Shown: piece after piece, positions 29,717-60,563 of the stretch
How the letters are laid out: each line of letters starts with the position of its first letter
Numbering within the stretch: position 1 is the stretch's first letter
Assembly (NCBI GenBank): GCA_976551045.1
Contig: CDPCPM010000160.1
Location: forward strand, 1,550,001-1,614,000
Source of the DNA: Glaucostegus cemiculus
Taxonomy: Eukaryota
Length of the DNA: 64,000 nt
Direction: 5' to 3'
The notes under the pieces: generated by a model
Told to the model about the DNA's origin: nothing
Databases searched by the model: none
Seen by the model: only the letters and a program-made list of their open reading frames with translations
Translations under genes and position numbers: made by a program

Positions 29717-29799
29717 GAGATTTTCTCTATTTCTGTTGCAGACAATTTGCAAGTGATTTTGATTCGCTGGAAATTCTTCGCTATCAGCTGAGCGAGGAC

Positions 29800-29911
29800 C
29801 GGACCAATCAGCGCTGCAGCTTCTGACGACTGACTCCAGTGATTTGGCCCGGAGACCAGGAAGCGCGGCTCAGTCTCCGAGTGTAACAAACACAGGCGCT
29901 GCTCTCTCGGG
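29800..29911 (+). promoter_or_regulatory. TATA-less proximal promoter/5' UTR of gene B with CCAAT box (29804-29808) and ETS-like CAGGAAG
   Basis: Inverted near-copy of 24853-24965. Confidence 0.6.
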
Positions 29912-29963
29912 ATGGAGGGGCTGCCGCTCACCGCGCTCGCTCTTTGTCTCTTCATACCTGCGG
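29912..29963 (+). CDS. gene B exon 1, signal peptide (MEGLPLTALALCLFIPA)
   Basis: gggATGG start; G|gtgagg donor. Confidence 0.93.
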
Positions 29964-32900
29964 GTGAGGGTCACTCTGTCGGAGAGATAGTTAACAAGGA
30001 ATCACAGCGGCGGAGGGTTGTGGAAAAGCGTATGAGCTTCCCAGAAACGATCTAATATTGAGCTAAGTGCAGATTCTGGAGTCTCTCCGCTTCTTTCGCT
30101 TTTCCCTCACACGAATTTTTCTTCCTCAGGTGAGTCACAGTTTACCATCCACGCAGAACACAGCCGGATCAATGTGACCGAAGGAGGAAATGCGTTCTTT
30201 TCAGTGCGGCCGACGGCCGAGTTCGCCGGTGGAAACTGGGGTTTCGATGGGAAAACAGTCGTCCAGTGGACGGATACAAAACCGTTCTATGGTAGTGGGT
30301 ACCAATCACGGGCTGAGCTGTTCACCTCCAACGGGTCGCTCCTACTGAAGATGGTGAACACCTTGGACAGCGGAGAGTACACTGTGACCATGTTTACACA
30401 TAGCGGCTCTTTAGCTTCAGCGACCGTCACTCTGCGCATCACTGGTGAGTGAGACATTGGTCGTGTTTAATCATTTCTTTGTGACTGCTGCTCTCATTTT
30501 AAGTTGGTGGTGAATGAATCTAATTTAATCATTCCTGTCCAACTCACTTGTCCTTACACTGTAAGTGTGCAACAGCTTACAGGCTGTTACATGGTCGCAG
30601 TGTAACTTGGTGAAGGAGGTATTTTTCCGGTCTGGAATTTGTAAATAAAGAGTAAGGCCGGTCTACCTTCGATTCATTTTCGGATATCTCTCGGGCAGGC
30701 ATCTGCCGTCTGGTAAACTACAGACAGAGGATGCATGTGGGGTGGGACACGGTGCCGTGTTTCTCTGCCTCAGCCTCCCTTTCACCTCACTCTTCCATCG
30801 CATGACAATGCTAGTGTTTACCACGCGATAAAAGGGAACTGCATTTTGATCCAGGAGTTAAATCAGTGTCCCCAGTTTTCCAGGGGGAGTCTGTGGAGAG
30901 AATATAAGCAGCAGGAGGGTTTCAGGTCGATGCCATTTCATCAGATAGTGAGTTGAGAAGTCAATGATATCCCATCGGACCAGGGGCTTTCCTCCTGCCT
31001 GTGATCGGCGCTCCCGGATCTTCTTGAAAGGAAAGATGTAGACCCTATTGCAACAAACGGCGGGACTTCCGGGCCTCATGACCTGCATCACCACGAGACA
31101 AGGTGGATTTGGCCTAATGACTTGTCCTTGGGTCTAGAAACTATTATTTATCACAGAGGGGTTGATGCACACTGCTACTGGAGCAGGGTCAGGAGTTCCG
31201 AAAACTTAAAATGCTCTACCGGAAGTTTTACTCCAATGGCCTGTGCCTGATGCATGTACAAATGATATGTTAGCAGAGCACAATAGTTTTTGATACAAGT
31301 TGTTTTAATTCACAAAGTGTATTTCTTTTGCTTTGAACTAACGGCGTGGAATGGAGATTTCAGTGGCTCAATTGCCTTAGAAAGTTGTTGATAACATTGG
31401 AGCGCCGGACTGTTATGTGCTTTACATTTTAACTGTCTGTCTCTTATCTTACGCCTTCCCAATACATGTTCAGAATTCAGTGCAGATGACGCTATTCTTT
31501 AACAGATCTACAGGTGGACTTCCTGATATTAAAGTGATTATTTGTATCCTTTGCACACCTCTTCAGTGTCGCTACTTTATCTACTTCACCTGACAAAACA
31601 AAGAGAGATACTGGGGTGCATTAGCAATACAGACTGTGGTTTAAAAGTTGTCCATACATTTCATTGTTGATTTGGAGCTAAAGATTAGGGATCAAGCGTA
31701 GACCTTCACCCTGCCCAGCCTTCTGAGTTATGTTTGTGGTAATAGATTTCCTTATTACGTGAGTTACTTTTAACACCAGCACATATCTCAATAGAGTCAT
31801 ATAGTCATACAGCACGGAAACAGGCCCTTCGGCCCACTGCGTACTTGCCCGCCATCAAGCACCCATTTCCACGTAATGTATTATTCTCCACATTCCCATC
31901 AACTCCCTCCAGACTCGACTGCTCGCCTACACCCTAGGGACAAATTGCAGTGGCCATTTAGCGAACCATTTTTTTGCGGATATTGGAACCATTTTGTTCC
32001 AAGGCTGCACATAACCAAGCAATGAAGATGACCGTTTATTGATTAAGGACAGGGAATTCGTTCCAGTTCTTTTGTATAAACAGGCAGAAACTTGGGCTTT
32101 CCTCTTTCCTCCATGACGCGGTCCAGACGACAGATCTCCCTGCTGACAGGTCAAAGCATTCAGAAGACTTGAAACAATGAGACACCCCACAGAATACCTT
32201 TGTTTCAGTTTTCTCACGCTTGGTTTGTAAATGTAAAGAGTAAAGCAGGTTGGGACATAACCAGAATTGTACGGACACAATTATACATTAGTTATAGTTG
32301 GTGTCTCTGCTGTCATCTCTGCACATGTTACTTTGATTGATGAGGTTGTAAATGGGTAGGAGCCGGTTTCATGGTATTTAGAAAGTTTTTATCAAGGTCG
32401 CAATAGCAGGTGTGATCCCCTCCATTCCAACAAGTTTTCGCTGGCTGTCATATTGATGCTGAAAGCCAGTCAGATTCAGTGTGTCGTAACCCGTCCAATT
32501 ACGTGGCAGCAACGGAAACGAACCTTGGCATTCCCTTTGGAAAGCAAATGTGCACCTGCTGTGTTAATATAATATTTAAGATCTGAACAACTGGTTGCGT
32601 TTAGATAGTTTCTATCATGTTCTAACTTATTCTCTGGTACCCATGGGAATTTTATGAAACAAAATTTGGAACCAGGATAATATGGGGCAGACGGCAGACG
32701 GCTTGGGCCAAAGGGAGATTTGAATGGGAGGAAGATGGGGAGGGGATGGAGATGGAGGGAGAGTGTCAGTGTGGACGGGATTACAACAACAAACAGTTGA
32801 CTGCTGCTTCCAGCAGAAATTAAAAACTAGATACATGAAAGGAAAGGAATAATCTCCTTTCGTGTGTTGGCGGTTGTAGATTAGAATCCGGAAGTGAAAC

Positions 32901-35900
32901 ATGTCCATTCATAACTCGTCGCAATTCCCAAGTTTAGACTGGTGTGGCAATGGGATGGGGAAGAGTTCCTGGGACATACCTGGCTCCGTCAGGTTTTATC
33001 TCCTTTGAAGTTGAGAAATATTGTGAAGCCACACATGAGTGAACCTTCAACTGAGTGACTGGAGATAGAACAGTGAAATCTCTGGTCACTACGTTAAACA
33101 ATAGATGTTCTCCAGAGAGAGTAGCAAGTCACCAATTACACTCCCAGCAAAGGCCCATAGGCAGCTCACACATCCATGACCCACGGTCAGACACAACACG
33201 ATCCCATTTCCAACGGCCGGGACCAGCAGTGCGAGGCCCGTTGTTTAAGGCGAGAATCTCATCTGCCCTCTGCATTTAAATAAAACTTTGCCACACTGCG
33301 CAGAACCAGACCATTCGACCCATCAATCCATGTCTGAACCTACACCAATCCACTTTAATTCTCTCCAGGTTCCCGACAATTCCTCCACGATTCTAGCACT
33401 CGGCTTAGCAGCAGGAAAATTTAGAGCAGCTAAATTCTGCTCCACTTCTGCTCCATAATTACCCGAGTGGAGGAGGAAGAATGGAGGAGCAGGTCATTGT
33501 TTAACTGGAGAGAGACAGCGGAGATCTGGGTGTCCGACTGCATGAAGCACTGGGAAGTTAGCGTAGACGTAGATAAGAATCAATGTTGTCGTCGTTGCAA
33601 AGGCGATGAATATGAATGGAGACAACTGGATAGACAATGGGTGAGATCATAGCTGCACGACTGCATGTAGTCCCTCTCTCTCTCTGTGCCTCTCTGTGCC
33701 TATCTGTCTTGCTGAATGTTGTCCTGCTGAGAGTGAGCGGGGTGCTCCCTGCTCCACTACCGAACAAGAGAAAAATGACTCCTCACTTTGCAAGAGTTAT
33801 ATTTTGCGTCATGTTCCAGTTATGGTTCTGCAACAGACAGAGCCCCGATATTGCAGAGGACAGACAAGTGGCTGGATCTGAAACCATCGAGGATACAGGA
33901 AGAAAGGTCAGCTCTGTAGAAAAAAAATAGATGGGAGATGCAAGCTCAACGGTTTAGAAATTGAACAGTGTTGCTGCCTCGAGTGACCTTTGTGTCGGTG
34001 TACACAAATCAATGAAATGTAACGTGCAGGTTCTCCGAACAATTAGGATGTAAATATTTAGCCCATACGTAACTGATACACAAATAAATCCCCTGACCTT
34101 TATTACAAAAGGGTCTGTGTATGAATGATACCATTTTCCAACTATATCGAGCCCTGATGAGAGAGCACTTTGGATATGGGGTTATCTACAAGTAGGGACA
34201 GGGTTTCAGAACAAGAGATCACGCTTTTAAGACTGAGGTGAGGAGTACTTTATAGCATTATTTCTCCGATATTTACTATTTATTTTAATGATACCGAGGA
34301 GGGGTGAATTCTCAGGTACTTTTTGTTTATCGTTAACACGAAAATAGTTGGATGGCACGTTCACATGAGGACACTGTGCCCCATCAACAATATATGAACA
34401 GATTGATTCAGTGGGCAAAACCCGGTCACAAAGAGTTTAATATGGGGAAGTGTGATGTCATGCACTTCAGTGAGTGGAATCCAAGGGCACACTATTAACT
34501 GAATGGAAAGATATTGCAAATGAGTGATGTACGAGGGATCCCAACGGAGCTTTGGCAAGAATCACAAGAACTTTGAAGGCAGCTGCAGCAAGTAGTTAAG
34601 GAGGCAACTAGTGTATTGGCACTTATTGCGGTGGGATTCAGAAATGGGAGGTTTGTTCCAGTTCTGCACGGTGTTGCTGAGGCCACTTCTGGAATGCTGT
34701 GCAGTTTTTTCCACTTACCGAAGAAGCGACACAATCGAGTTTGAGCGAGTCCAAAAGTGATTCCCAGAATAATTTATGCGATGAGAGGATTGTCCATTTA
34801 GAGAGACTCAACAGGTTTGGTCTGTATTCCTAGAATGTGGAAGAATTAGGTTCTCCTCTGAGGGCGGGGAACTTCATGACTTCTCTCCCCTAGACAGCTG
34901 CAGAAGCAGAAATATGGAGTTTATCCCAGGCCACCATTCCCAGACAATGAAAATACAAGAGAGTCGAACAGTATACCGAGAGGGCGGTAAATTTGTGTGA
35001 GGACAAGACTGGATCAACCATGATCTGAGTGATTTTTGGAGCGAGCTTCTTTAATTGGTCACATGTGGCCCCTGAATCGAGCTCGTAAACAGTTCTTGGT
35101 GTTTTCTCTTCGTTAACTAATTACTAGTGTGCAATCTCAGAGCACTATTTTGCGTCTGTTCAATAACTCATTTCGGATGTTAGTTGCTTCTTTTTGTTCA
35201 GGTGACTCGTTTAATTCCGCTTTTCATGTCATAAAACTCTCCTTTTCTCAACCTGACACAGCACACAAACTGTTACCGCGCCGTTCCATATTCCACTTGT
35301 CTTGCATTCATAAATCAAAAAGAAACAGAACCAAGATTCTCAAATACCAACTGATGTACTAATTACCTCTGTCACGCTCCTCTGCATCATAAGACACCAG
35401 TGATCGTTCCTTTCCTGTATTTTGACAGAAGCCATTTCTAAGCCCACCATCTCAGCCAATAACACTCATCCCGTAGAGCACAACGATGCAGTTGCTCTAA
35501 CGTGCGATGCCACTGGGTCACCAACCTCATTTGAATGGTTTCATCGAAATGAAACAATTCGCTCCGGGGATAGGACCGCCCTGACTCAGGGCAATAAAAC
35601 CCTCGTCATATCGGGAGTGTTGCGGACTGATGGAGAATTTGTGTGCCGAGTGTCTGATGCTTACAATGAAAAGAGAAGTGATCCATATAATCTGAATGTT
35701 GCCTGTAAGTGTAAAAACAAACTCCGCAAGCATTCGTTAATTATTACCAAACCTACGGAAAGTACTGGAAGGGAAGTTTTTCACTTTCTGTTTGTTTGAT
35801 CTGAATCAGATATCTGACACGAAATTTGTAAAAACGTACATGGCGTCATGGTTACATGTTAAACCGTGCACGTCTGAGCAATGTAGGTTTGGTAATGCCT

Positions 35901-38900
35901 GGGGAAGCTGACAGATAGGACGATGATCAAGGATTATGTTTCTTTGATTCCCTATCAATCACCTTGCCCAGGACAGAGTTTCCTTGGAAATGCTTTTCTT
36001 GGGTACATCAAACAAAGCTTTGTATCCACACCTCCAAGAAATTAGCGATTACAGCAGGTCGCTGTTGAAACAGACAATTTTAATTAGCAAAATTTGCAAT
36101 GCAAAGTTTACAAAGAATCAAATTCGAAAAATGGGATTAATGTTGAAGAAAGCTTTGTTTTCCATGAAATATTTAGGTTTAAGATTCGTTGCAAATTTAG
36201 TTTAGTTCAATTCTATGCATTGCACAGCTGGTAAATTGCATGATTTTACTGGCTTAATGGGGCGTGGGTGGCTCGTAGTTCGGTCGCACTCCGAGTTTTG
36301 CGTCATATTTGAACCAACCAATGCGTTTATTTTAGATGGACTGGAATCTCTAATCGTATCAATCAGCCCAGAGCTTGCTTTATATCCTGCGGGATCAAAT
36401 GTAACTTTTTCCTGTTCCACTGTTTCAAACCCCGCTGCTCAGTTTCAGTGGAATCGCAATAATTCAACACATCAGAAAAGCGGGAATCAGCTAATCATTG
36501 CAGACCTGTCCTTGAATCACACTGGCAATTACACTTGCAAAGCTTTCAACTCGATAACACAGAAATCCAGTGTGACAACAAGGTTCATTGTTGTTATAGG
36601 TAGGTGAAGAAGAAGGTGAGGGCTCCCTCCTTACTTATGGTGGCTGTTGTTGTGTTAGCTGCAAGATTAGCAGTAGATGTAGAGGAAATTGTGCGACATT
36701 GCGTCTGTTGGCGTTGTTGCTAAAATCTACTATTCTTGTTTTTAAATGTTGATTTCAGTTGTGAAGTTTTAGTTCATTTGCATTTTGTTCTATTTCTTCC
36801 TGTTTTCTTTGTAAAAACGTGGACGTTTGTATCAGGCAACTGATCTTCGCACTCAGACCTGAAGTTAAGAAGCAACTTACGTAGTTCTTTTTATGAACTT
36901 CATTGTGGGGAAATGGGATCTTAGCGCCAACGTTTGAGACCAAAGAAAAGCAGTGAATTCGTGGCAGGATTGTGTCCAATTCTAATCGGGGCACGGCTGG
37001 ATCAATGTGGACATTTATGGTCTCTGCACAACAGGAAGAATCTGACACCTCTGGAGAAGATGCAAGAGGTCTGACGCAGCCGCGGTCTGGTCCAGAAATT
37101 TATCATTCCAAGAATATCGGGCTGTAGTAGCTTTTTGAAGCAATACAGTCAATACAGCTGCATAAAATTATATACCGTATGATCGTTAACGAAATCGTGC
37201 CCCATGTGCATCCTGTGAAGCCTTCCCGCACTCGTGCGGATAAACTCTACCTGTCATCTTTCTGCCCATGTCCGTAACTGATCTATATTTTGCTTTATCC
37301 TTTGGCAACCTTCTTCACAGTTCACAATTCGAGAATTTGTTTAGTCTCCAAACCTACTGATCAGCCCGTCTACTTTTTCGTCGAAGTCACTTCTACAACA
37401 GGGGTTCCAATACGGACCCTGCGCAACACCACTGGTCACAGACCTCCAGCCAGAACAAACACCCTCCACCACTTCCCTCTGTCTTCTATGGCCAAGAAAA
37501 TGTTGAATCGATTCTACGAAGTCAAGGTGGACCCCGTGGGCCTTAATCTTCTGGAACGGGCTGCCTTGTCTAATGCCTCACGGAAACCCATGCAGGCAAC
37601 ATCCACTGCCCTACCCTCATCGATGGTCTTCGCCATCTCCTCAAAGAACTCAATCAACTTCGGAAGGTTATGACCAGCACAGCACAAAGCCTAGCTGACA
37701 CTGCCCAAACGACCCATGCTCTTCCAAATGCCAATAAAACACTTGCCTAAAATTCTTCTCAAAGAGCTTCCCTCCAATTGATCCGAGTCTCACTGATCTA
37801 TCATTTCCCCTACTGTCGCCTGCTGCACTTTTCAAACAAAGGGACAACTTTAGTTACTCTCCAGCCCTCTGGGACCTCGCCTGGGGTGAGAGTGGACACG
37901 AAAGTATAAGTCAGCGCCCCAGTAGTCTACACTCTCGCCTTTTTTAATAACCTGGGATGGATCCCATCAGGGCCTGGGGACATCCGTATGAATGTTCTTC
38001 AAGAGACTCAACACCACCTCGTTGGTCACATGACCATGCCCTGGAAACTTCGCATACCCCTCCCTGATCTCACTGTCCTCCACGCCCTTCTCCTGATCCC
38101 AAGTACTCATGTAGTGCCTCACACACTTCCTCTGGTTGCAGGCTCGGATTCATTCCGTTGTCCAGAAGTTCTCCTACCATCTCCTGGGCTACTTTATTCT
38201 TAATGCATGTACAAAGGGACAAAGGATATTCCAAAATCCTATTTTAAAAATGATATTTCGTGGTCATTTTTGGCCTAGTTCTTGCAAGAAAGAGTTCTTT
38301 CTTGCTTTCCTTTTATTCCTTAAGGGCAATGTCTGATTTCAGAGGCCTGTTGAATATTCCAGGCTATTTTACGACGGATGAGCGCACAATGGCCAAACAA
38401 CAGTGCTAACAGACCAAGCAAGCTACGCACACTGGCGATGCAGCTTTGGTTTGACGTGTTACGAGCCACTCCAGGCACGCAGCGTCCTCGGGATTTCAAG
38501 GTGAGAGCGGCTGACGCACAGTACGGCAGAAGTTGGCGAAAGACGAGATCCAGATAGGCAGTAGAAACTTGGCTCAGCATCCTTCATATTTAACATAGAA
38601 GAGTGTAGCACAGGAACCGTTCCGCCCGCGATGTTGTGCCGAACTAAAATACTCAGGGGGGAAAAAGCTGATTGTCAAAGGCAGTGAATTAATTCTGGGA
38701 TATCACAAAAGGAGATTATCGGGGCCGAATTCCCAGATAACGACCATCAAAGGATTTCGCCTCGATGAAACATTTCAAAATGAAAATGGATGTTTTCAAA
38801 TCAATGTCAGTGTTTAGGAACTAATATATGAAATAGTGATTGTAGCTGAAATCTGTTACCTGATAAAAATGAATGCTCTTTAAAATTTGGAAAGCACCAT

Positions 38901-41900
38901 TTCTGTTGGAGATGGTGATCCCAGTCCTCTGGAGAACACGGATCCCAAGCAAATCCGACCACTCAGCCCTGTTGATCCGAAGCCACTGCTGGATGCGACC
39001 GTGTTTCTGGGTTTCGACCAGGAGGTCGGATGCGGTCGCCGCTAATCAGCGGGTTCCAGACTTCCGCGGCCCCCAACGCGCGCGACGGAAATCACAACCG
39101 CCTGGAGCTGCGGGAAATACCTCGGGAAACCTCTGTTGCAAATCAACCCCACAGGGGATGCACCCACCCAGTCAGTGTGCCGATATTATCTAAGACACAG
39201 CCATGTTCAGAGTGTACTAGACATCCCATGTTACATGGGGCGAGCACTGAGCTCTCAGAACTGCAAAGCTCAGGAAGCTCTGTTAAGGTCTTGTGCTTCA
39301 AAATCCCCGTCTCTGGCCTCATATCCGTGTGCGCAGATCAGCAGTGACTTCCGCAGTCGCTGCAACATGCATTCGGCCACAGTGAACACTAACTGGTCGC
39401 TGGTAGATAAGGCGGAGGCGTGAGCGTGGCTGATGTTTGCCCATGACCAGTGCGTCTAGAGCCAGGGGCCGCAATAACAGGACAGAGATGAGGAAATGTT
39501 TCATCAGGTCACAGTGAGGCGCAGTACGGAGACAGGACCTTCAGCACACTGTTCCTTCACTAACCCATTTACATCCCCCTCCCCTCCCATCAGCTCCCTC
39601 CAGAATCTACCAGCGGCAGTTTACAGTTGCCAATTCATCTCTCAGCCCGCACATTTTTAGGAGGAACCCGGACACAGGCGGAACTTGCAACCCCAAAACA
39701 CAGCTAATAGCGGAGGTCAGGATTGGACCCGGGTCTCTGTAGCTGTGAGGGTACCCATATCCCTGCCGAAGATAGTGAGGCTTTGATACTCCCGACACGT
39801 GTGGCCTGGAGTCTCAGTCGCTGAATATATTCAAGAGATTTTGCTGGCATTTTTGGGGTAAATGTGAAAGACCCGACATGATCTGATGGCAAAGCAGAAT
39901 CGACGGGCCAAATAGCCTGCACGTACTTCTAATTCTTCTGTCCTAATCCTCCATAAAACATCCATCAACTCATTTGACACATTGCTCGCCATCCTGACGG
40001 GGCGAAATTCATTTAATTCCATCTCACGTCAAGTCTTCGGGATCACAACCCCTGTCTCCCGATAATTAGTCATGGACAAAAGTTAGATAGGTTTCTCACA
40101 ATCACTTTCACACCATCTCCCATATCTTCCCAATGCAAAATACGAAACGTAACCGATCACCCGAACGCTTTACTGCATTGTACTCATTTATGTTCACTTT
40201 CAATGCATTTACCTTTTCCTTTACAACTAATTAGTTTCAGTTGGCCAGAACTAATTAGACTGGGACCAGCGGGGCCAGTTTTGGGACCCACATTGTCGGC
40301 ATGGGAGATTGTCTTCCGAGAAGTGCCGATCGCATTTATCAGGTTAATACGGGGATTGCAGGGGTTCAATAGTGAGGAGAGTTTCCACACACCAGGACTG
40401 AATCTCGGGGAATGCAAGCTGACCCGTGTTTTGGGTTCAAGGATTAAAATGATTCCCGCTGCTTGAGAGTCTGAGACCGGTGGTTAGAATCTGGAATTGA
40501 ACCCTGGTTTCGGCAGTGGGGTTTGGGAACGCTTCTCCATACACACAGGAGGGAAATAATTGGGGTTTCTCGCAAGCGAAGGGCAGTAGATGCCTTTCAG
40601 CAAAGCTGGGAAAGGTTGAAGATTGTAGAAAAGTAATGTTAAGATGCAGAGAGAGGTGGTTAAGATGCAGAGAGAGGTGAGGGAAGGGAGATGAGAGAAA
40701 AGGGGAAGAGCTGCGATCTGGAGTGCAGGGAGGTGCAGCCGAAATAAAAGTTTTCCCGTGTTTCATTCTCCACCGCCGCTGACTGGTCGTTCAGTATTTC
40801 ATTCATTCTCTGGGTTCACCTCAGATTCCGCATCTCCAGTGTTACGCTTTCTATAAGACGTGTATTCTCTCAGGGATATAATTGCTGCGCATTACGTTTC
40901 AAGTAATTTACTATCTGCTGTGTTTTAACAGAACCTGTATCTAAGCCCGTTATCACATCCAATGACACCGACCCCGTAGAATACAATGACACTGTTAGTT
41001 TGACGTGCCACGCAAGAGGGACGGATGTTTCGTATCTGTGGTTTATGAACAATACGACAGTTAGCGCTGGCGGTAGGATAACCCTGAGTTCCAACAACAG
41101 CACCTTGACTATCTCTGGGGTGCTGAGATCGGACGAGGAATTCACCTGCGTTGCGTACAACTTGGTGAATAAAAACACCAGCGATCCATTTCTACTGAGC
41201 GTTCGCTGTAAGTGCAACTGTGGTGGCCCGTTTGATCTCATTAACGTTTAACATTTCATTGTCCGTTACAATGTATCATAACGCTGCGAGGTTGTACTGG
41301 ATTTCACTGGCATGAGGTTCGATTGAACAAAGTTAACCAATAATCCCATTGGTCTATGGGCAGCGGGGTATATACTACCGTTCCTCTTCAGAGTCAGTTT
41401 AAAATTTGTATCGATCAAACCAAACCTCACGACCCATTGCCCATGGATCCCAGTCCAGCTGAGCTTCTCCCATTTTCTTTAACATCTCTGGGTCTCCTTT
41501 CCCTGCCCCAGTAAGAAAGAACTTTAGTCGGTATGGAAACAATCTCTATTGCAGCCCTCAAGCCTTCCGACAACAGAAATACAACCTCTGCTCTATGGAA
41601 CCTGTCGGCAAAACACAAGTGCATTGTCAAACTGACTTAGCAACTTAGCTGACCAAATGTTGCTGTGCTTAGAAATGATATAACGTCAATTTCACCCTCG
41701 TATACTTATCAAACTGAACATATGGAGATGGAGTCCGTTATTTTTCCCTTGGGGTCCAATTGTTGCAGTGATGCGTAGCATTCCTTCATGGTACCATAAA
41801 CCATCGAATCTTCGCTATCCTAATATTTCCACCGCAATTTCTGGGATCAGCCAGAGTTTACCGTTTCGTAAATAGTGGTATTGAACTGGGGATGGTGTAG

Positions 41901-44900
41901 TTGAGGTTAAGATGGGAAATTTGGATCATGTTGTCCCAGAGAGGGTTTGAATTTCAAGGGTATGTATGTGCATTGGGGAGCGATGCTCTGCGATACTGAG
42001 AATATCACTTCAATATTTAGTTAGGTATGAAATTATGTTCAAATTATTTTAGTTTCTTCAATATGATTGTTTCTAACTTTTGATGGCCTTGCCTGCCCTC
42101 TACGTGACCCTCGGCCCTATCAACGTGGGCTTCTCAGCTGGGTAGTTCCAGGGGAAACAAGGGTTCGACAAGGAATTCTGGCATTGCCACTGACGTCTGA
42201 ATCTCTTGACGACGAGTTTAAGAAATTTCGTCCAAGTAGCCTCTGATTGGAGACTTCAGCTGAGAGACAACCTCGCTGGTTGGTCTGGATTCACACCGAA
42301 GGCCAGACCGGGCAATGCAGCGGATTTCGTTTCCTGGGGGACAGGGGGAAACGAGGTATGATTTTACCACGGTCCGGTAGTTACCTGATTACCATTGGTG
42401 AGACTATTTTTGAGTGCACCAAAAGATGTCTCATGCCCGTTTCTATCAGTGACATGAAAGAGTTCGGCGTGGAACAAGTATAGTGGTCACCTCACATCCC
42501 TTGGTATCTCGAGGGAAATTTAGGAGCTACCGCAAGAATGGGCTGAGCGGTGTCCATTGTTATGCACGACCCTGAAGAGAACATCTCTGCTTCACGCTGG
42601 CCTATCAGGGGAGGGTGAACCAAAAGAAAATGTTAGCCCTGTTTCCTTCGCAGCTGAGTCTCTCCAAACAGCCGAGCGTCCACCATGACCCAACATTCCC
42701 CTCCCCTATCAAAGTTGCGTCGTTCACTGTCCTCAGGCAGACGCCACAACAGGAATAATATCCAGATCACTCTAAACTTGTCTGCGAGAGCGGTTGGCAC
42801 CACCGTTTGTGCAGGTGACCATCATCTGCTAGAAGGAGATTGTTTCCATACCGATTTCTTCTGAGGTGTGACTCGGTGGGAGCGGGTAGAATTAGTGTGG
42901 CAGTGGCTTCTCTCTATTCACTCGGTGCAGTGGCCTAGTGACGGGATGGAGATCTGCTTTAGAGTCCTGGATGAAATTCTGCAAACGGACTGTGCATTTG
43001 TTTTAGATGGACCGGAAAATCTAACCATTTCCATCAGCCCAGACATTGCTGCGTACGGTACGGGGTCAAACGTGAATTTTTCCTGTTCGGCTCTTTCGAA
43101 CCCCGCTCCTGCATTTCAGTGGTATTTCAATGGTTCATCTCTTCAAACAAGTGGACAGCGCCTGAACCTTGTTGACCTATCCCTGAATGACACTGGCAGT
43201 TACGCTTGTGAGGCGTTTAACAATGTAACCAAAGGGTCGAGCTCAACAACACGAAACCTTGTCGTTTTAGGTATGTATTATGTCGAGGGGTGGTGGAGGT
43301 TTCCGAGTTGTGTATGTAAAAACGGAGATATTGCATTGTGGTTAAACTATCAGCATCTGGTATGGTGTAGCCTGGTTTTGAGTGTGTTATTAGTAAGGTA
43401 TTAGTATGCACTTTTGGGCTTGTAGCGCGCGTTCATAAGATAATACCAAATAGGTCGAAGTTTGGTATGTGAGATAACAACTTTAATTGGCTTATCAACA
43501 TCGATACTAACACTGTATTTTGTTTAATTTCCTGTAAAGAAACGTTATCTTGACGGGTTTGGAAAGTCGTGTGTGCGTCAGCAATTCTTCTCTGCTCTAA
43601 CCTTTGTTTATCCGTCATCATTCTCAATGCCAAATGCCCCTTGCCTGAATTTAATTGATCCTTACTTCCTTCTCCCTGTGGAACGCAAATTCCATCCCGT
43701 TGACATTGCACCCTGGTTGGTTTTGATCTGTGGGACAGGGAACGTCCCTTGTTTATTGCGTTACGGAATGGGGTTTAAATGACCTGTTGGCTATCTGCGA
43801 TCAAATGCTTTTGAGTACAAATGGAAACTCTTCCTTTTGGTAGCGGTTCAATGACAAGAGCGCTGTACTAAAGTCTGGACACGTTAGACAAACGAAAGGG
43901 AGGGGAGAGTGGGTGGGCAGATGGGTTGAAACATATTCTACACCTCAGTGTTGATCACCATAGCTCGCTACCGACACTGATAACGAGTTGAGGTTCGGAC
44001 TGAGCAGAAGTAGCAGCGCCCAGGGAGTTCAGAATAAAATTGACACCGTCTGGAGAAATAATCAGTTGAAGGGCCGGAGAGAGAGTGGGGAAGGGGGTGA
44101 CTGGGTCATTCTTCTCGGGATTGATCACTCCATTGTAACTGCATTGTGAACCTGCACTTTCTCCTGATACCTTAAAATCTCGAACTTCCACGTTGAGTCC
44201 ATTCACCACTGACATTTCCGCACCCGTCTGTTCAAAGTGAGCCGCACACCGCAGAGAGGTCTGTCAGTTCTCGCAGGCGCCGGTGGGGCGATGCAATGTC
44301 AAGCACCACCTCTGGTCCCGGGAGCGCCGGCTCTGCCGACGTACTGTAGGCGCGCTGCACTGCCAACACCACTGTCTTTTTCCTCAGGGCGATATCTGGG
44401 GTCCCTTCGGCCCCCTATTTCGTGTCCTGTCCATCCCGCCGAGTGGGAGATCAGATGGGGATTGTACGTTGGTGATTATTTTACTGAACACATGAAGCTT
44501 GGGTTATTGACACTGAGGCGGGAATCCGAATCCCATACGGTAGTTGATGGATTACAACTCAGTTAAGTAAACTGATCGGGATTTAACCCGTCGCCAATGG
44601 AGGTAACAACGAAATTACCAGATTAACAAGCCGAACAATGAAGACATTCTGCTATTCTGACCCAGTCTGGCCTACAGGTGACTGCAAACTGCTGACCCCT
44701 GTCTGCCAGCCATGTTTTGGGGGCAGGTAGGCGTGGACAACAGATGGCGGGATTGTCAGTGAGGTATTCAGACGATTGAATGAAGGTCGGAACTGCTTCT
44801 CTCCAGCGCGGTAACTGAATCTCCACGCTTGCAGCAACACAGATTATCTCGAATATTTTCAATCTTTTCCGTTCTTATTCTACAGAATACCACATCGCTG

Positions 44901-50900: not shown

Positions 50901-53900
50901 AGGGTGAGGAGTGGAGTTGTGACAACGAATCCAAGGATGAGGAGCTTCAATGGCGGAATCTCTGGGATCGTTCACCTTGTGTTTAACATACGGAAGGATG
51001 TATATAGTGATAGAGAGGGTGGGTGAGAGGAGAGCAGAGCAGAGGAGAGCAGAGAAGAGGAGAGGAGAGCAGAGAGAGGAGAGAGAGGGGAGAGATGTGA
51101 GAAAGAAGGGAAGAGAGATATGATAGAGTGGAGAGAAGGGAAGCAAAGAGAGCGGGGAAGAGAGAGAGCAGTTGTTCACAGTGACGGACCGGACAACACG
51201 GAATACTGGCAAAAGAGCAAAGTTATAAACCTGTAATTTTAAGCAAAGACAGCTCCTAAAAACTGATTCTGTGTTCTGTTCTGTGCATCCGCAACTGTCT
51301 TTGTTGTTCTTACAAATAACTATTGATTGATTATCGTGTTACAAGAGTTTACTTTTAACCAGTACAGATTTGGCTTTCTTGATCACAGACTTTACCTTTC
51401 TCAGCGGTCAAACATTGCCTTGTCAATAAATCGCAAGCACATCATCAACAGGTGGTGTTCTGCCATTCGGCCCCTCGAGCACCCTCTGATACTCAATGAT
51501 GTTATCGCTGCTCCGTGATCCCCAAACCCTTAACTCCCATTTCGCCGAATACACCTCCGTCTATGCCGGGTTAGAACACATAATGTCTGATCCCCACAGC
51601 TCCCTAGAATTTTCTCCACATCTCCGGTTGAAGATAGAGACCCCATAATTCCGAACCTTGGTCCCCAGCTGTACAATTTCCCCAGAAGGGGAACTATCTT
51701 CTCGACAGCTGTATTACTCTGGTGTGTTTGATATCAGATCAAACTGAAATTTAAAATTACAATGCTAACACAGACCATCAGACAAATAGGAGAATATGCA
51801 GGCCACTCGGCCTCTATAAACTAACCCGGCATTCGAATCGATGCAGCTGATCATTGTTGGCCTCTGCTCCAGTTCTCAGCCACTTCGCCATAACCATCTA
51901 GTCCTCGATCGTTCAAATATTTATCAATCTCCACCTTAAATTTATCCAGTGATCCGGCATCCACCACGCTCGGAAATAGAATCCAAGAGAATCACTGCAC
52001 TCTGAGAGAAGACATTTCCCTTTACCCACGTTTTAAATAACCGGGCCTTTATAATGTAACTGTGCTGGCTTGTTCATGAGTCTCCCTCTGGTAGAAACAT
52101 CTTAGCATCGGACATAGAACAGGCGCTTCGGCCCACTCTATCTGTGCTGAACATGTGCCAAATTAAACTGATTCCATCTGCCTGCACATGATCCACACCC
52201 CTCCATTCCCTTACTGTTTATATCTCTTGGACACCAATATGGTGTCGCTTCCATCAGCAGCCCTGAACGCTCCTTCCAGTCACCCACCACTCTGTGATAA
52301 GAACTGAGCCCACAATCTCCTTTGAACTTTCCCCCTCTGCCCAAGGATGTGCCCTCTTGAATCCAGAGTGTAACCTCTCAAGCAGACTTAGGATCTTATA
52401 TGATGAAATAAGAACACCTCCATTCTTCTGAGCACCAATGAATACAAACCCAAACTCTCCAGGTTATGGTGAGGCTCAGGCTGAGGATTAGGGTTCCGGT
52501 TAGGTTTAGGGTCAGGGCCATGCATTGTGTAGGGTTCCTGTTGTCTTAATAGAAAAACCCACACCCCAGGAATGAGCCTGGTGAATCTGCTTTGGGCCTC
52601 CTCCAATGCTACTATATCGGGGGGTTTAGGTAAGGGGACGATATCTGTGTACAGTATTCCAGATGTGACCTCTCCAGAATCCTGTACAACTGTAACAGGA
52701 CCCTCCAATTCATCAATTCCAATTCCTTTGCAGTGAAGGCCAAGGTGCCGGTGACAACTATGTCTTGGTGAACAGGGGGCCTTGATGATGGGAGGATACT
52801 GCGTTAAAAGGTGTAACTCCATTTCGCCTTTACTTGTATTTACAGAACCCGTGTCTAATGTCAATGTAGCACGCAACAATTTAAGTCCCGTGGAAATCAA
52901 CGATACAGTTGTACTCATTTGTGACGCGCAGGGTACTATTCAGAGACGAACATGGTTGAAAAATAACCTACCCATCCAGGAAAATGACAGAATATATACA
53001 TCTTCAGATAAAGCAAATCTGACCATAACCCGTGTTAACAGAACTGACACCGCAACATATAACTGTACCGTAAGCAATGATTACAACAGCGGCAGTGCAG
53101 CAATCTACATGCAAGTTAACTGTAAGTTGGCAGACTGCTCAAAACATTAGCTTGCGTTTGATATTATTCATTACAGAATCCGCATACTTTCTTAATTTCT
53201 GTTTGCAGATGGACCGGAAAACGTTAGAATTCTGCCGCAGGGACCCGTTGAGGCAGATATTGGTTCACGTCTTACATTAACTTGTTCTGCCCAGTCAGTC
53301 CCCAGTGGTGAATATAAATGGTACAATCGGACAAATCATCTACAGACAGGGCAGCAGTACACCATCGAGCCAGGAAGGTCGGTTGACAGTGGGAATTATA
53401 CTTGTGAGGTTTATAACAACGTAACCATGAAACGCAGCAGCCGCACCGTCGAAGTACTCGCACGGAGTAAGTACATTTTCTCTCTGTATTTGACTGAGAT
53501 TGTCTTCATAAAGATCTCAGCAGGTGTATTTTCAGAACCTCCCGGTCTCCTTCTCTGTCTGACTTGCTAATCAGAAGGACAATGATTCGGTGTTCTTGGA
53601 AACTTTAAATGTGGAAACAATTATCAGCCAAGACAAAGGGTTTAAAGGGATTCACTTATTAGCGATGAACACGTTATTTTAAATTCCTTGGATACGGCTA
53701 CAACGGATGAGGTTACCTTCCAGCTTTGACAAAGCTTTGGTAACTCAAGAACAAGTGAAACTCTGGGTGAACTTAATGGAGAGTTGTTTTCACTGCTTCG
53801 ATGATTGTTAGCAGGACCACTGGAAACGGTTCTACACCATGACAGTTTCGGTTGACAGCACTGCTTTTGTTGACGGGCAGATTCTGGAGTTTTGAGTTGA

Positions 53901-56900: not shown

Positions 56901-59900
56901 GCGTTGTTGCTGGAATTGCCATTGTGGGTGCATTCGCTGCCTGGTTTATCAAGAAATATGCAAGCAGGTATATATGTTTCATTCAATCTTTACCTTCATG
57001 TTGATTATACTCCCTAAGACCTGATGTCCTGAAGTAACCAATGATTTGTTGCAGAATGATTTGCGTCTACTCTATCCTGTCAGCCGACGGTGTGCGTATT
57101 TCTCCCGAAGCTTCCATACTTGTTCGATTTACAGCTGCTCTTTAAATCTGCTCCGCTGTTTGACGGTTAGTCATTCAACCTCACTGCCGTGCATTAGCAA
57201 TCAAGCAATCAAGCACATTCCTCCATGACAGAAGGGGCATTCGGCAATTTCTTTCCCCATATATTTGTGAATGGACTGCTTCACACATACACGGCAGGGG
57301 GACAGCAGCAAACACAGGTCGCGGATCTGCACGTCAGCACTGACTGCTATTGTTCGACGCAGAGCCCTGTATTATTAATCCGACTTCTCTTGTTGAAATA
57401 CCACCATCCGAACAAGAGAAACTGAAGCTGGAGAATATCACAGCCCCTCGAGCCAATTATGCTCTACAATTTGATTGTTGATTTGATCTTGGCCTCAGTT
57501 CAACATATCCCCCATTCTCAAAAGCCCTTCACTCCGCATTGCACCAAGGATTTTTCTCTCTCGGCCGTGAGTATGTTCAATGCTTCCAAATCCAAGGAAT
57601 GACAGAAGCCAAAGATTCACCGCCATTCATTACTCCTCCACACCTTCTGATACAGGTGAAACGTTCTTCTGAAACATGCCCCCATGTTCAGGAGAAGTTC
57701 ACTGTGGGAAACAACAACTTACCCGTCCATACCTGCTCAAAAAGAGGTTTCAGGTTCAAAGACGGTGAGGGCTAACTTGAGCTGACTGAAGAAATCTGAC
57801 CAATGACCATGAACAGCAAAATCATCCCATAGTCCAAGCTGATTCACACCTATCCATCTAGAAGGCGAGAGTGCGTCACTATCTTGTGTTATCTCCACGA
57901 ATCTCAGAGACCATATGTGGAAAGATAAACGTATCGACTTAATATTCTTTCTTCAGAAGTATCGTTATCTGAACATAAATAGGCCGAATATTACAATGGG
58001 AATGTGATTGTTTCTACTTGCGGTTTGATTGACACCTCTGTGCCCAGAGCAGATAATTTGATATCTCTGTTTCAACGTCCTGTTCCCTACTGTCAAGGTA
58101 CAACAATAAATGTGATTTCTGTTGGAATTCCCGTTCACTGAATTAGTCTATTGACCAATCTTTTATTTTCAGAATTCATATTTTGATTCGTGTTTGCTTA
58201 CTTAGGATGAAAGTTGCGGAGATACATCACGGGAGAGGAAAACCAGGAGTAAACAGTGAGTAGAAAGCGTTTTCACAGCTGTCAGTATAAGACGTTGGTT
58301 GGGCCACACTTGGAATATTGTGTGCTGTTCTGTTCACCGCAGTATGGAACGTATGTGGTCGTGTGGGGAAGAGATTCGCCAGGATGTGGCCTGGAATGGA
58401 GGACTTTAGTTCCAAGGGGAGGTTATACGCTGGGATAGTTGTCCGTGGAGTACAGGTGGCTGAAGCTAACCTTTCCAGTTTCACATAATCATGAGGTATA
58501 TACTCACTGACCTTTCCGAACGTAAATGAACGTGGATCAAGAGTAAATATGTGAGAAGGAAAATACTGAAAGGAGATAAGAGAGGCACGTTTGTCAATCA
58601 AACTGTGGTGGGTGATTGGAACTGGCTGCCAGAGGAGGTGGTTGAGATAGGTATAATCACAGCGTTCACAAAGCATTTTCACAGGTGTACGTATAGGAAA
58701 GGTAAAGAGGGATAGGATCCAAATGCAGGAACTTAGGATGAAAGTGGATGCGCATTTCTGTCGGCATGGTTTCGTCGGGCCAAATGGCCTGTTTCGCGGC
58801 TGCAATACTCCATCACTTCATGTGACAGGAAATACAAAGGATGTTGCTGCGCAGATCCGTGGACCTCACAGAGATGCTCGTATAATTCTTAGAGTCAAAA
58901 ATGTGAAAGAGGCAGTCGGAATCATGCGGTGTCCTGGGATGGCTTAAACGGCCGCAGAGACGGTTATATTCCAGTGAGAAGAAGTGGCGTCAGGGGAGGT
59001 GACTGAGGGGGAATATTTCTGTATAGAGTTGCTACAGTCTGGAATGTTGCTCCATTTTTCAGTTTTGTCGCCCGTCAGTCTTCAAGGTTGCAAGACTCTG
59101 AAGCGGAATTGAGTAGCGGTTGAGTTTGCCCGGTGAGGTCCATCTTCTGCATAACTAAAATGTACAATGCTTGACCTGGCTGTGCACTGAACTGGATCGG
59201 TGCCAACTTCTCAAGGATAACAAGGATCTGCAAATCCTGCCACCGAGAAGGAGAAGAACAGGATCAGACCTTAAGTTGGTCAAATCTACAGGGCTTGTGC
59301 GAAAGGGGCGGAACTCATGAAATTGGTGTGATGCGCTTCCAATGTATCCAACAGGCGTTCCTCCGTAGGTGAAAACTACTATTGAATCTGTTTGCTCAGA
59401 TAAATAAACGTGTTGTATTCCCACAGACACCTTGGCTACCGATGTTGCAGACTCGGCACAGACGTATGAAAATATGCCAAGGAATCAGAAGGTTAGTACA
59501 AGTGCATCATGATGACATTCTAATCAACATCATTTTTATATACATAACGTAGAATGTTGATGTAGAACATAAAAATAATTCCTCCTACAGCAGTTGTGGA
59601 TTGGGGTCAGCAGACTGGGGTCCTTAGGAATATATATCTATAAAACTTGCATTCTTCCTTTTCATGTTCGAATTCACTCTCCTACCTCAGAACAATCTTT
59701 AACACACGTTTGGATAAGGAATACGCAGGAATAGGAAGCCTTAAGAGGGCTCTGGGCCAAATGCGGGCAGTCAGGACATGATCGTTGGCTCCTTGGTCAG
59801 GATGGACCAGTTGGGCCGAATGACCCGTCTCCATGCAGTAAGATTGTATCGCTCCGTGACTCTATGAATCGTTGGGAATGGTCATGATCAGGTGTAGCTC

Positions 59901-60563
59901 GCCAACTGACTTCACTATCAAACTATCGTAACACTGGACTCTCTAATAATTTGGTTAATGACACTTTGTGGGTCCACATCTGTGAGCGAATTGCGAAACA
60001 AACTCTATCTGTGTGTAGACTAGGTTTTTGGTACAAATTTGTTTAAAGCCGCAATGGATGTGAACACTGCTTCCTTTAGGTTTCATTTGGAGGAGAGATA
60101 ATGACATTCTCTGTCTTGTCGGTTGATTCATTCAGTATTTTATTATTTTCCCATCAACAGAGTAGCGCTCACCCGACCGATGAAAACTCCACTTACATGG
60201 TAAGGGAATTGTGTTTTATTCTTTTGAGGCAAATACTTCTATTTTCCCCGTTTCGAACCAAACCCAAACGTAAACCACTCTATCACGGGAACCCCCTTTA
60301 ACACATGGCAAGTTCACAGCTGATCCTATCTCCCACGTACACTTTCCGGCCCGATCCTCATGTACGCCGATTCACGCACTGTCCGAGAGCCTATCGGTCT
60401 CAGCGCGGAACACTCTCAACGTCTTCTCTATGATCTTATTGTACACGTCTGTCAATGTCTGCTTCTGCTAATATTTGTTTGCGAATCATAACGACCTGTT
60501 CATGTTCAACAGGGGCTGGTGTTGGAAGACCGATCACTTTACAGCGACCTAAGGAGGAATTAG
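29912..60563 (+). CDS. CEACAM-like gene B, 15 coding exons, 949 aa: SP-N-(A-B)x4-TM-ITAM
   Basis: All exons are GT-AG and phase-consistent; summed CDS is 2850 nt with no internal stop found. Confidence 0.9.
30130..30444 (+). CDS. gene B exon 2, Cys-free IgV-like N domain
   Basis: 315 nt, phase 1-1; NGSLLL...DSGEY, no cysteines. Confidence 0.94.
33930..35030 (+). mobile_element. degenerate CR1-type LINE fragments
   Basis: Remnants similar to the CR1 RT C-terminus (aagtgtgatgtcatgcacttc; ggccacttctggaatgctgtgcagttt). Confidence 0.55.
35429..35704 (+). CDS. gene B exon 3, IgC-like A1
   Basis: 276 nt, tttgacag| ... T|gtaagt; LTC..W..FVC. Confidence 0.92.
36336..36599 (+). CDS. gene B exon 4, IgC-like B1
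   Basis: 264 nt, tttag| ... G|gtaggt; FSC..SNP.AQFQW..GNYTC. Confidence 0.92.
37200..38340 (-). mobile_element. degenerate CR1-type LINE RT fragment
   Basis: Similar to 13900-14600 (acatccactgccctaccctcatc; atcccatcagggcctggggac). Confidence 0.7.
39600..39790 (-). mobile_element. SINE fragment (V-SINE-like)
   Basis: Reverse complement of cacagctacagagacccgggtccaatcctgacctc, which is box B-like. Confidence 0.5.
40638..40679. repeat. perfect 21-bp tandem duplication
   Basis: gttaagatgcagagagaggtg x2. Confidence 0.9.
40932..41207 (+). CDS. gene B exon 5, IgC-like A2
   Basis: 276 nt, taacag| ... T|gtaagt. Confidence 0.93.
43007..43270 (+). CDS. gene B exon 6, IgC-like B2
   Basis: 264 nt, ttttag| ... 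G|gtatgt; YGPEN...FSC..W..YAC. Confidence 0.93.
44997..45272 (+). CDS. gene B exon 7, IgC-like A3
   Basis: 276 nt, caacag| ... T|gtaagt. Confidence 0.93.
45420..45725 (+). mobile_element. elasmobranch-type SINE remnant (family uncertain)
   Basis: gcagctggggaatttaaattc...aacggtgacca...ggggaaggaaa...tgtgactccagaccc resembles a common shark SINE core; a related partial copy lies near 47290-47430. Confidence 0.5.
46814..47074 (+). CDS. gene B exon 8, IgC-like B3 (absent from the ORF track)
   Basis: 261 nt; YGPDRPNITTDPDSPPYLAGSTVTFTCSAGSRPVANLDWYLNG...GNYTCQAFNN; ttttag| ... G|gtatgt. Confidence 0.93.
51010..51170. repeat. purine-rich (GGAGA/GCAGA) low-complexity tract
   Basis: Directly visible. 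Confidence 0.8.
52110..52750 (-). mobile_element. CR1-type LINE 3' fragments
   Basis: ALEEAQSRFTRLIPG and LESLGLYSL..RR (ORF 52388-52918) are CR1 ORF2 C-terminal motifs. Confidence 0.75.
52846..53121 (+). CDS. gene B exon 9, IgC-like A4
   Basis: 276 nt, tttacag| ... T|gtaagt. Confidence 0.93.
53209..53466 (+). CDS. gene B exon 10, IgC-like B4 (YGPENVRILPQ...LTC..W..DSGNYTC)
   Basis: 258 nt, gtttgcag| ... A|gtaagt. Confidence 0.93.
56841..56967 (+). CDS. gene B exon 11, transmembrane (GLSAAAIAGIVIGVVAGIAIVGAFAAWFIKK)
   Basis: ttttcag| ... AG|gtatat, phase 1-2; closely resembles the CEACAM1 TM start GLSPGAIAGIVIGVV. Confidence 0.93.
58206..58255 (+). CDS. gene B exon 12, cytoplasmic (MKVAEIHHGRGKPGVN)
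   Basis: cttag| ... A|gtgagt; phase 2-1 as required to join exons 11 and 13. Confidence 0.72.
58262..58810 (+). mobile_element. CR1-type LINE 3' fragment
   Basis: YKTLVGPHLEYCVLFCSP motif and CR1 3' UTR. Confidence 0.8.
59427..59491 (+). CDS. gene B exon 13, cytoplasmic (NTLATDVADSAQTYENMPRNQK)
   Basis: cccacag| ... AAG|gttagt, phase 1-0. Confidence 0.88.
60161..60199 (+). CDS. gene B exon 14 (SSAHPTDENSTYM)
   Basis: caacag| ... ATG|gtaagg, phase 0-0. Confidence 0.9.
60513..60563 (+). CDS. gene B exon 15 (GLVLEDRSLYSDLRRN*)
   Basis: ttcaacag|, phase 0; TAG at 60561-60563. Confidence 0.88.
   Translation, partial: GLVLEDRSLYSDLRRN

Follow-up and report, generated by a model that had tools for sequence, protein, structure and literature searches.

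A nine-Ig CEACAM gene with an ITAM-like tail, probably an activating receptor, within a large paired-receptor array of the ray Glaucostegus cemiculus

The window analyzed here (64,000 nucleotides of contig CDPCPM010000160.1 of Glaucostegus cemiculus, hereafter C160) raises the question of how a long CEACAM-like ectodomain came to be joined to an ITAM-type tail in a single gene, and what such a receptor might do in a ray. The locus at 29912..60563 is an intact gene, in which 15 exons, all situated where a preliminary description had placed them and all separated by GT-AG introns, form an open frame of 2850 nt encoding 949 amino acids with no internal stop (Table 1). The translations of the exons contain the Cys-free N domain, the four A/B pairs of IgC domains, the transmembrane (TM) segment, and the tail recognized at that time. 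The introns are of phase 1 through the ectodomain and of phases 2, 1, 0, and 0 across the tail; the IgC exons alternate between A exons of 276 nt and B exons of 258-264 nt, and all eight encode two Cys each, while the N exon encodes none. The 949-aa product has 39 N-glycan sequons. Taken as a whole, the locus is probably best understood as an intact CEACAM gene for a likely activating, microbe-binding receptor in a large paired-receptor array.

Table 1. Positions of the exons of the gene and of its head-to-head partner in the window.
Feature	Position	Strand	Evidence or remark
Exon 1, putative leader	29912..29963	+	ATG, hydrophobic stretch, GT donor
Exon 2, IgV-like N domain lacking Cys, putative ligand-binding tip	30130..30444	+	domain, PDB and model matches
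Exon 3, IgC A1	35429..35704	+	
Exon 4, IgC B1	36336..36599	+	
Exon 5, IgC A2	40932..41207	+	contigs join exon 5 to exon 6
Exon 6, IgC B2	43007..43270	+	contig-supported
Exon 7, IgC A3	44997..45272	+	contig-supported
Exon 8, IgC B3	46814..47074	+	
Exon 9, IgC A4	52846..53121	+	
Exon 10, IgC B4	53209..53466	+	contig-supported
Exon 11, transmembrane helix without charged residue	56841..56967	+	matches sawfish P0016
Exon 12, first exon of the tail, 50 nt	58206..58255	+	homology to sawfish P0016
Exon 13, second exon of the tail, containing YENM	59427..59491	+	contig-supported
Exon 14, third exon of the tail, with the first half of the first YxxL	60161..60199	+	contig-supported
Exon 15, remainder of ITAM and stop	60513..60563	+	contig-supported
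Head-to-head partner paralog, partly decayed	1272..24852	-	
Partner leader	24852-24801	-	
Partner N exon	24630-24313	-	
Partner A exon	18466-18191	-	
Partner B exon, frameshifted	16314-16055	-	
Partner, additional A/B exons		-	one B frameshifted near end, last B without first Cys
Partner TM	6893-6782	-	
Partner tail exons	5110-5055, 4618-4554, 1656-1615, 1319 onward	-	YxN and ITAM-type motif
Inverted leader+N pair flanking 5-kb shared upstream region	24206..30551	.	86% over 761 nt; copies 24206-24965 and 30551-29799

Five open, phase-compatible candidates were available for exon 12, and 58206-58255 was preferred over the rest because it matches the sawfish protein P0016 (XP_051901533.1) and recurs in paralogs. 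Skipping of this exon in silico causes a frameshift and the loss of all tail motifs; skipping of exon 13 likewise destroys the tail motifs, and that of exon 14 leaves a single YxxL. Contigs from both of two runs of one study, presumed to be of RNA, span introns 13 and 14 at GT..AG and also introns 5 and 6. The contigs are about 90% identical and hence come from a relative, not from this gene itself, so it is in a related organism that the 60199/60513 junction, singled out earlier as the one to check, is bridged by spliced contigs. Joints for introns 2, 3, 4, 7, and 9 were not found among those listed for the two runs, intron 8 lies outside both contig-compared stretches, and exon 12 had no direct match among the contigs of these runs.

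The TM exon runs in frame into four tail exons, and the protein does not end in a GPI signal. The tail contains the tyrosines Y912, Y932, and Y943, the latter two of which, 11 residues apart, compose a YxxL-x7-YxxL motif whose first half is split by the phase-0 intron 60200-60512; the motif is, as had been noticed, formed only by splicing. It had been called a canonical ITAM with upstream acidic residues, and both the x7 spacing and the acids (Glu at -4 and Asp at -5 of the first ITAM tyrosine) are indeed present. The residue at -3 is, however, Asn, and because Asp or Glu is missing there, the motif is ITAM-like instead of canonical under the definition given in PMC2832619. Both YxxL halves also match the ITIM consensus SxYxxL stated in the same paper. 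A third motif overlooked in the preliminary description, YENM at Y912 in tail exon 2, fits YxN and YxxM alike. The ITAM-type motif is not a product of chance because it is kept in public homologs, in sawfish P0016, and in the spliced contigs: 11 of the 28 public shark and ray homologs, from six species, terminate in it. Of the 20 open paralog models, 19 keep both of its tyrosines. A search for tail homologs beyond elasmobranchs yielded, from 2785 candidates, only two sawfish proteins, and any homology to the marsupial tails discussed below therefore rests on layout, not on alignment.

Membership of the gene in the CEACAM family, as had been proposed, is supported by sequence comparison. With the sawfish relative, the best PDB match is CEA at E 9e-93, whereas matches outside the CEACAMs begin at 4e-24, and CEACAM1 is the top match in both PDB sequence searches made with the N domain alone, even if the margin is then thin (profile E 5e-10 for CEACAM versus 3e-7 for CD48). 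The N domain matches the V-set (E 0.003), and its predicted model is of the IgV type with a pLDDT of 95.5. CEACAM N domains are IgV-like without an intradomain disulfide, with which the absence of Cys agrees. Other marks of these domains, according to section 7 of PMC2832619, are an Arg-Asp salt-bridge pair and a conserved N-glycan sequon, and the corresponding R, N-G-S, and D align with the same residues of mouse CEACAM1. Each Ig domain is encoded by one exon of phase 1, and the A/B alternation is kept in all eight IgC exons. Fold searches with the N-domain model returned generic IgV domains and did not separate CEACAM: PD-L1, TIGIT, and MOG were tied (Z 15-16, rmsd 1.5-1.9, about 100 residues), and the N domain of CEA was at Foldseek rank 16. 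Among the 28 public homologs, 23 bear CEACAM or PSG names, and the nearest matches are from sawfish at 69-70% identity, in accord with the guess that the DNA came from a cartilaginous fish, which is a ray. By the synteny criterion, the CEACAM family lies between LIPE and BCL3. LIPE was found on a different contig from C160, with no CEACAM exons in 200 kb of that contig; CLPTM1 and porin-3 gave matches, none of them on C160; and PLAC8/cornifelin had no match anywhere in the assembly. None of these searches revealed a syntenic link. C160 stops 23 kb past the last gene, and its left flank is a GPCR array. An NLR fusion, in which a CEACAM-type N exon would be joined to a NACHT exon as suspected in stingray and manta, was not seen in this assembly.

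The gene is part of a 1.6-Mb array of head-to-head pairs on C160, where ITAM-type tails number 38, of which 20 belong to open models, alongside one CEACAM1-like gene with an ITSM/ITIM tail. A genome search for the inhibitory type gave eight candidates, two of which matched, both being this one gene; its first tail exon is 53 nt long, as in dog and snake CEACAM1, and its middle tail exons, for which tblastn came back empty, were located by a splice-site scan. The earlier view of a hybrid of CEACAM5 and CEACAM3 is right in that a long stalk is combined with an ITAM-type tail, but the gene is not a single unusual hybrid, since it is one of eight nine-or-ten-Ig ITAM models among the 20 open ones. 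Nor is the ectodomain specifically CEACAM5-like, because the same nine-Ig layout is found in the inhibitory CEACAM1-like gene of the array.

The N domain and the stalk of these genes have diverged very differently. In six nine-Ig paralogs, N domains are 66% identical versus 85-91% for each IgC domain, and in the gene studied here, A1-A2 of the stalk are 98-99% identical to those of the inhibitory gene while the N domain is only 67% identical, short of the 80% or more expected of a CEACAM3-type decoy, which means that this copy is not the matched decoy of the inhibitory gene. The matched copy is another paralog, C160:1642591, whose N domain is 100% identical to that of the inhibitory gene at the protein level (1 of 318 nt differs), and four other copies are 80-83% identical there. 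The dN/dS of the ligand face, whose positions we assigned ourselves from predicted strands and CEACAM1 positions, is 1.92 over 22 exons (permutation p 5e-5) and 2.06 over 14 ORF-bearing exons (bootstrap 1.46-3.01), the pairwise counts being non-independent; the values are 0.72-0.75 for the other N surface, 0.39-0.43 for the core, and about 0.9-1.0 for the whole N exon. The N exon exceeds its flanking introns in divergence in only three of five comparisons. In a tree confined to shark and ray N domains, those of inhibitory and activating members cluster within species, with strong support in three of five species; the sawfish grouping is weak and the Heterodontus domains are unpaired. The array shows the pattern of a paired-receptor cluster, with inhibitory and activating members, signs of exchange, and diversification specific to one face.

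Judged from its sequence, the tail likely activates cells and the fast-changing tip likely binds microbes. A microbial adhesin, or another multivalent ligand, would bind the N domain at its C-C'-C''-F-G face and cluster the receptor, upon which Src-family kinases would phosphorylate Y932 and Y943 to dock the tandem SH2 domains of Syk (or ZAP70), while Y912 could dock Grb2 or PI3K p85; uptake, an oxidative burst, or cytokine output might result. Repeated unequal crossing-over may have joined the long ectodomain of the inhibitory gene to ITAM tails, and exchange between head-to-head partners may have reshuffled the N exons, with selection diversifying the binding face. If so, the specificity of this copy is likely unlike that of the present inhibitory receptor.

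Human CEACAM5 is GPI-anchored and has three A/B pairs. It shares with the ray gene a long repeated A/B stalk and is the top PDB sequence match of the sawfish relative, whereas the stalk of the ray gene has four A/B pairs and is followed by a transmembrane helix and a cytoplasmic tail. Human CEACAM3 (PMC9418913) shares the N domain and a two-tyrosine ITAM-like tail but has one Ig domain and two tail tyrosines, in contrast to the nine Ig domains and third tyrosine of the ray gene; uptake by CEACAM3 has been attributed to the exclusion of a bulky phosphatase from a close contact (PMC9418913). Sawfish P0016 has the TM and four tail exons and an N domain 70% identical, but its model of 608 aa contains fewer IgC domains, and "CEACAM1-like" is only its automatic name. 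The marsupial ITAM CEACAMs of opossum and wallaby, as described in PMC2832619, likewise have four cytoplasmic exons with YxN in the second, the phase-0 split of the first YxxL, a seven-residue spacer, and clustering with a CEACAM1-like inhibitory gene, but have E at -3, where the ray gene has Asn; the ray gene also has eight IgC domains. The paired Ceacams of Xenopus and reptiles, described in PMC5112662 and PMC13278318, resemble the ray array in forming a single cluster with inhibitory and ITAM members, in the similarity of N domains within a species, and in the concentration of nonsynonymous changes on the CC'C''FG face. The upstream tyrosine of reptile tails is 17-21 residues ahead of the ITAM (20 in the ray gene), N identity in frog pairs is 80-93% as against 67% between the ray gene and the inhibitory gene, and the turtle pattern is reversed in the ray copy, with an N domain far from that of the inhibitory gene and a near-identical stalk. 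The decoy CEACAMs described there have 0-2 IgC domains (PMC13278318), unlike the ray activating members with their full nine-Ig stalk and repeated head-to-head ITAM/ITAM pairs.

A stalk of nine Ig domains with 39 sequons would hinder the close contact by which CEACAM3 uptake is explained. CEACAM20 signals via Syk, and a receptor resembling it, engaged in adhesion or sensing at epithelia (skin, gill, gut) through Syk signaling or endocytosis, could use eight IgC domains and these sequons to lift its tip through the glycocalyx; such a stalk is ill-suited to close-contact phagocytosis, and the YxN of tail exon 2 is common to CEACAM20 (PMC2832619). We nevertheless consider this role unlikely, since some 20 open copies, a diversified face, and within-species pairing look like CEACAM1-related paired receptors, and CEACAM20 is a conserved single-copy gene, reported in PMC2832619 from mammals only. 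It is more doubtful still that the tail is inhibitory or acts as a switch by recruiting SHP or SHIP phosphatases, as its two ITIM-type matches (PMC2832619) and the missing D/E at -3 might suggest, given that the 11-residue distance between the tyrosines and the phase-0 split follow the ITAM pattern and that a distinct gene of the ITSM type, with motifs about 57 residues apart, already exists in this genome, as in five of the 28 homologs.

Intactness might also reflect nothing but youth, if the gene were a recent, near-neutral duplicate in an unstable array whose repertoire looks larger than it is because of a second haplotype left uncollapsed. A copy 509 kb away differs at only 6 of 949 residues and lies inside a 44-kb block at 99.2% identity, blocks at offsets of 486-510 kb and 96-99.8% identity recur along the array, and 18 of the 38 tail-bearing loci have no open model. 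Such a haplotype may account for some of the copies; further offsets of 62-68, 135-150, 346-366, and 572-645 kb mean, however, that one duplicated haplotype cannot explain the array. Sawfish has the same tail in intact form, a related organism splices it, and the core N codons are under purifying selection, which makes neutrality quite improbable for the gene itself.

ITAM-bearing CEACAMs are on record from mammals, frogs, reptiles, and teleosts; the gene reported here probably represents this known vertebrate scheme in a new lineage, with an unusually long stalk. That it was probably uncharacterized in this lineage agrees with our search of the openly accessible literature, in which no study of a shark or ray CEACAM locus was found and cartilaginous-fish CEACAMs could be traced only to skate ESTs; the claim is to be qualified inasmuch as automatic NCBI gene models of relatives exist. 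Tentatively, we suggest that sharks and rays may have kept an ancestral jawed-vertebrate CEACAM pairing, including the tail with YxN and a split ITAM, which elsewhere is known from marsupials and CEACAM20, and that the ray may have made a germline-encoded set of long-stalked activating receptors by fusing the nine-Ig ectodomain of its single inhibitory gene to ITAM tails and exchanging N exons between head-to-head partners, with signaling that would dispense with the short contact distance of CEACAM3. Activating members with eight IgC domains contradict the published generalization that decoy CEACAMs are short, and they offer a direct test case for whether ectodomain length limits ITAM signaling. 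The locus shows a complete inhibitory/activating set, with within-species N pairing in several sharks and rays, and such pairing would date the pathogen-driven arms race of CEACAMs, or its parts, to the base of the jawed vertebrates.

Rebuilt from the window sequence, the focal gene has 15 exons with GT-AG introns in compatible phases and encodes 949 residues without internal stops, which bears out the exon organization proposed in the preliminary description. Pfam Ig families were matched by all nine Ig exons, the N exon weakly, as V-set, and the transmembrane (TM) exon contains no charged residues. The tail exons (50, 65, 39, and 51 nt) supply the tyrosines Y912 (YENM), Y932, and Y943, the last two of which form YxxL-x7-YxxL only once the phase-0 intron 60200-60512 is removed, as had been noticed. 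The motif had been called a canonical ITAM; its spacing stands, but residue -3 is Asn, and the motif is therefore ITAM-like rather than strictly canonical by the definition in PMC2832619. The earlier observation is confirmed, and its interpretation is partly supported.

The proposed CEACAM identity agrees with the top sequence matches. Sawfish protein P0016 (XP_051901533.1), which aligns to the focal TM and all four tail exons, found CEA as its best match among solved structures (E 9e-93; best non-CEACAM, 4e-24); the focal N exon alone first matched mouse CEACAM1, with Arg, N-G-S, and Asp aligned, and a profile of 31 N exons ranked CEACAM1 first. The N domain was confidently predicted to be an IgV fold, and fold searches with this model did not separate CEACAM from PD-L1 or TIGIT. 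Among 480 longer proteins scored with the N exon, 28 matched, all from sharks and rays and 23 with CEACAM- or PSG-like names; the nearest were sawfish proteins (69-70%), which points to a ray as the likely source of the window. Of these matches, 11 proteins representing six species end in the same two-tyrosine motif, and another five have an ITSM-type tail instead. Contigs from two runs of one study, presumed to be RNA and, at ~90% identity to the window, representing a relative and not the focal gene, bridge introns 13 and 14 and introns 5 and 6 at GT..AG, including the 60199-60513 junction singled out earlier; four of the 14 introns are joined exactly, and introns 1, 10, and 11-12 approximately.

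The genome search with the N exon gave 51 matches among 127 scored candidates, all at 0.48-2.0 Mb of contig C160, which carries the window; sequence was examined over 0.23-2.09 Mb and the array annotated over 0.43-2.09 Mb. Beyond ~0.8 Mb, the genes of the array are arranged in successive head-to-head pairs, whose leaders lie 4.4-7.3 kb apart in the 10 pairs measured; the window holds one such pair, whose minus-strand partner is partly decayed. The N exon of that partner is 90% identical in nucleotides to that of the inhibitory gene versus 86% to that of the focal gene. An ITAM-type last exon occurs at 38 loci, 20 of which have an open automatic model (minus-strand models being approximate), with both tyrosines in 19 and nine or ten Ig domains in eight. 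Blocks 486-510 kb apart and 96-99.8% identical recur along the array, which also holds a near copy of the focal gene with 6 of 949 residues changed. A second haplotype may account for part of the array, but tandem duplication is real too, as other block offsets show. Birth-and-death remnants are also present, as are divergent N-like exons (26-37% identity), possibly representing older conserved CEACAM lineages.

Features of the CEACAM array and related gene models
Feature	Location or accession	Description
Focal gene	window 29912-60563 (+)	Leader, Cys-free N, four A/B pairs of two-Cys IgC exons, TM, four tail exons
Partner	window 1272-24852 (-)	N exon intact; ITAM-type tail; B exons frameshifted
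Inhibitory gene	C160:2003667-2062760	CEACAM1-like, N + eight IgC, ITSM/ITIM-type tail
Matched paralog	C160:1642335-1687353	Chimeric-looking, ITAM tail, N protein identical to that of the inhibitory gene
Remnants	C160 near 1.235, 1.379, 1.725, 1.865 Mb (+)	ITAM-tailed bodies; leader or N exon not found at these four loci
Divergent N-like exons	C160:484884-606610	Three in tandem at 485-494 kb
Separate gene	C160 574-607 kb	N-A-B-A-B-A-B, divergent N-like exon
GPCR gene array	C160:231000-445000	Intronless, rhodopsin family; directly adjoins CEACAM cluster (12/41 ORFs scanned)
N-NACHT-LRR fusions	P0025 Hemitrygon akajei XP_072893694.1; P0026, P0038 Mobula birostris (several accessions); P0029 Mobula hypostoma	Automatic gene models

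The inhibitory gene is the single ITSM/ITIM-tailed gene of the array and the last on the contig. Its tail spans four exons (53, 57, and 44 nt, then the last), compared with three in descriptions of mammalian CEACAM1; a 53-nt first tail exon also occurs in dog and snake CEACAM1 (PMC2110893, PMC13278318). The matched paralog differs from it at 1 of 318 nt of the N exon and is 98.3% identical to its locus over the first 22.7 kb, while the 3' part aligns to other ITAM genes, a pattern that we infer would be expected from unequal crossing-over. This paralog is the best candidate for a matched decoy of the inhibitory gene. In four further paralogs the N domain is 80-83% identical to that of the inhibitory gene, whereas the focal gene shares only 67% in N but 98-99% in A1, B1, and A2.

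Across six nine-Ig genes, mean identity is 66% for N and 85-91% for each IgC domain. With codons of the C-C'-C''-F-G face assigned by us from predicted-fold strands and CEACAM1 positions, and with near-identical copies and the most divergent N exons excluded, face dN/dS was 1.92 for 22 exons and 2.06 (bootstrap 1.46-3.01) for 14 ORF-bearing exons. The other surface gave 0.72-0.75, the core 0.39-0.43, and the whole exon 0.9-1.0, the pairwise counts being non-independent. The N exon was less conserved than flanking introns in only three of five comparisons. Head-to-head partners resembled each other in N exons more than shuffled pairs did (85.9% versus 81.6%, p 0.0005; eight of 10 pairs, two duplicates dropped), an excess driven mainly by two pairs (97% and 93%; focal pair, 86%). 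A tree was built from 44 N domains: 28 of this genome, plus the first N domain of each of 16 proteins from the public set of 28. Within-species grouping of inhibitory with activating domains had strong support for this genome, Pristiophorus, and Hemitrygon and weak support for Pristis, and Heterodontus showed no such grouping; the tree did not resolve the position of the focal N.

The focal tail can be read against the binding preferences of the Syk tandem SH2 domains, Grb2 (YxN), and p85 (YxxM). The YxN preference is also given in PMC2832619. By analogy with CEACAM3 and ITAM biology (PMC9418913), a ligand would cluster the receptor, Src would phosphorylate its tail, and Syk would dock there, resulting in uptake or inflammatory output. 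The nine-Ig stalk, with 39 N-glycan sequons, is a poor fit to the mechanism proposed for CEACAM3, in which a phosphatase is excluded from close contacts, and the receptor may therefore signal by clustering, occur as shorter splice forms, or have an epithelial role. The phase-1 A/B pairs permit in-frame skipping. In several paralog models, loss of a B exon alone places one A exon next to another and introduces a stop, which could yield secreted forms.

Variation on the domain plan was also seen in other models. Six shark and manta proteins (P0001, P0003, P0004, P0005, P0008, and P0009) have three to six tandem N domains versus one in the focal gene, with ITAM tails in some and ITSM tails in others. 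NACHT-LRR proteins of three ray species carry a leaderless CEACAM-type N domain at their N terminus, 53-55% identical to the focal N; these fused domains fall together in a single clade within the CEACAM N domains of stingrays and mantas. Judged from the gene models, the N domain resembles a receptor or decoy module integrated into a cytosolic NLR. Such a fusion was not seen in this genome, and our literature search found no description of one; the fusion is possibly of greater novelty than the focal gene.

ITAM-bearing CEACAMs and paired receptors are known, from the portions of the sources consulted, in mammals (PMC2832619, PMC2110893), frogs (PMC5112662), reptiles, where one turtle has as many as 11 ITAM genes (PMC13278318), and teleosts (PMC3628338), while for cartilaginous fish those portions, together with that of PMC4079198, cite only skate ESTs. 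No study of shark or ray CEACAM loci was found in our literature search, and the cluster seems undescribed in this lineage. The tail layout of marsupial ITAM CEACAMs equals that of the focal gene. Reptile decoy CEACAMs, however, have 0-2 IgC domains according to a preprint (PMC13278318), a dog ITAM member three, and opossum CEACAM20/22 four, compared with eight in the focal gene, and the long stalk on activating members is a departure from the known pattern. The focal gene is a genuine CEACAM-family gene in a paired-receptor cluster of a known type, and it has an unusual long-stalk activating form.
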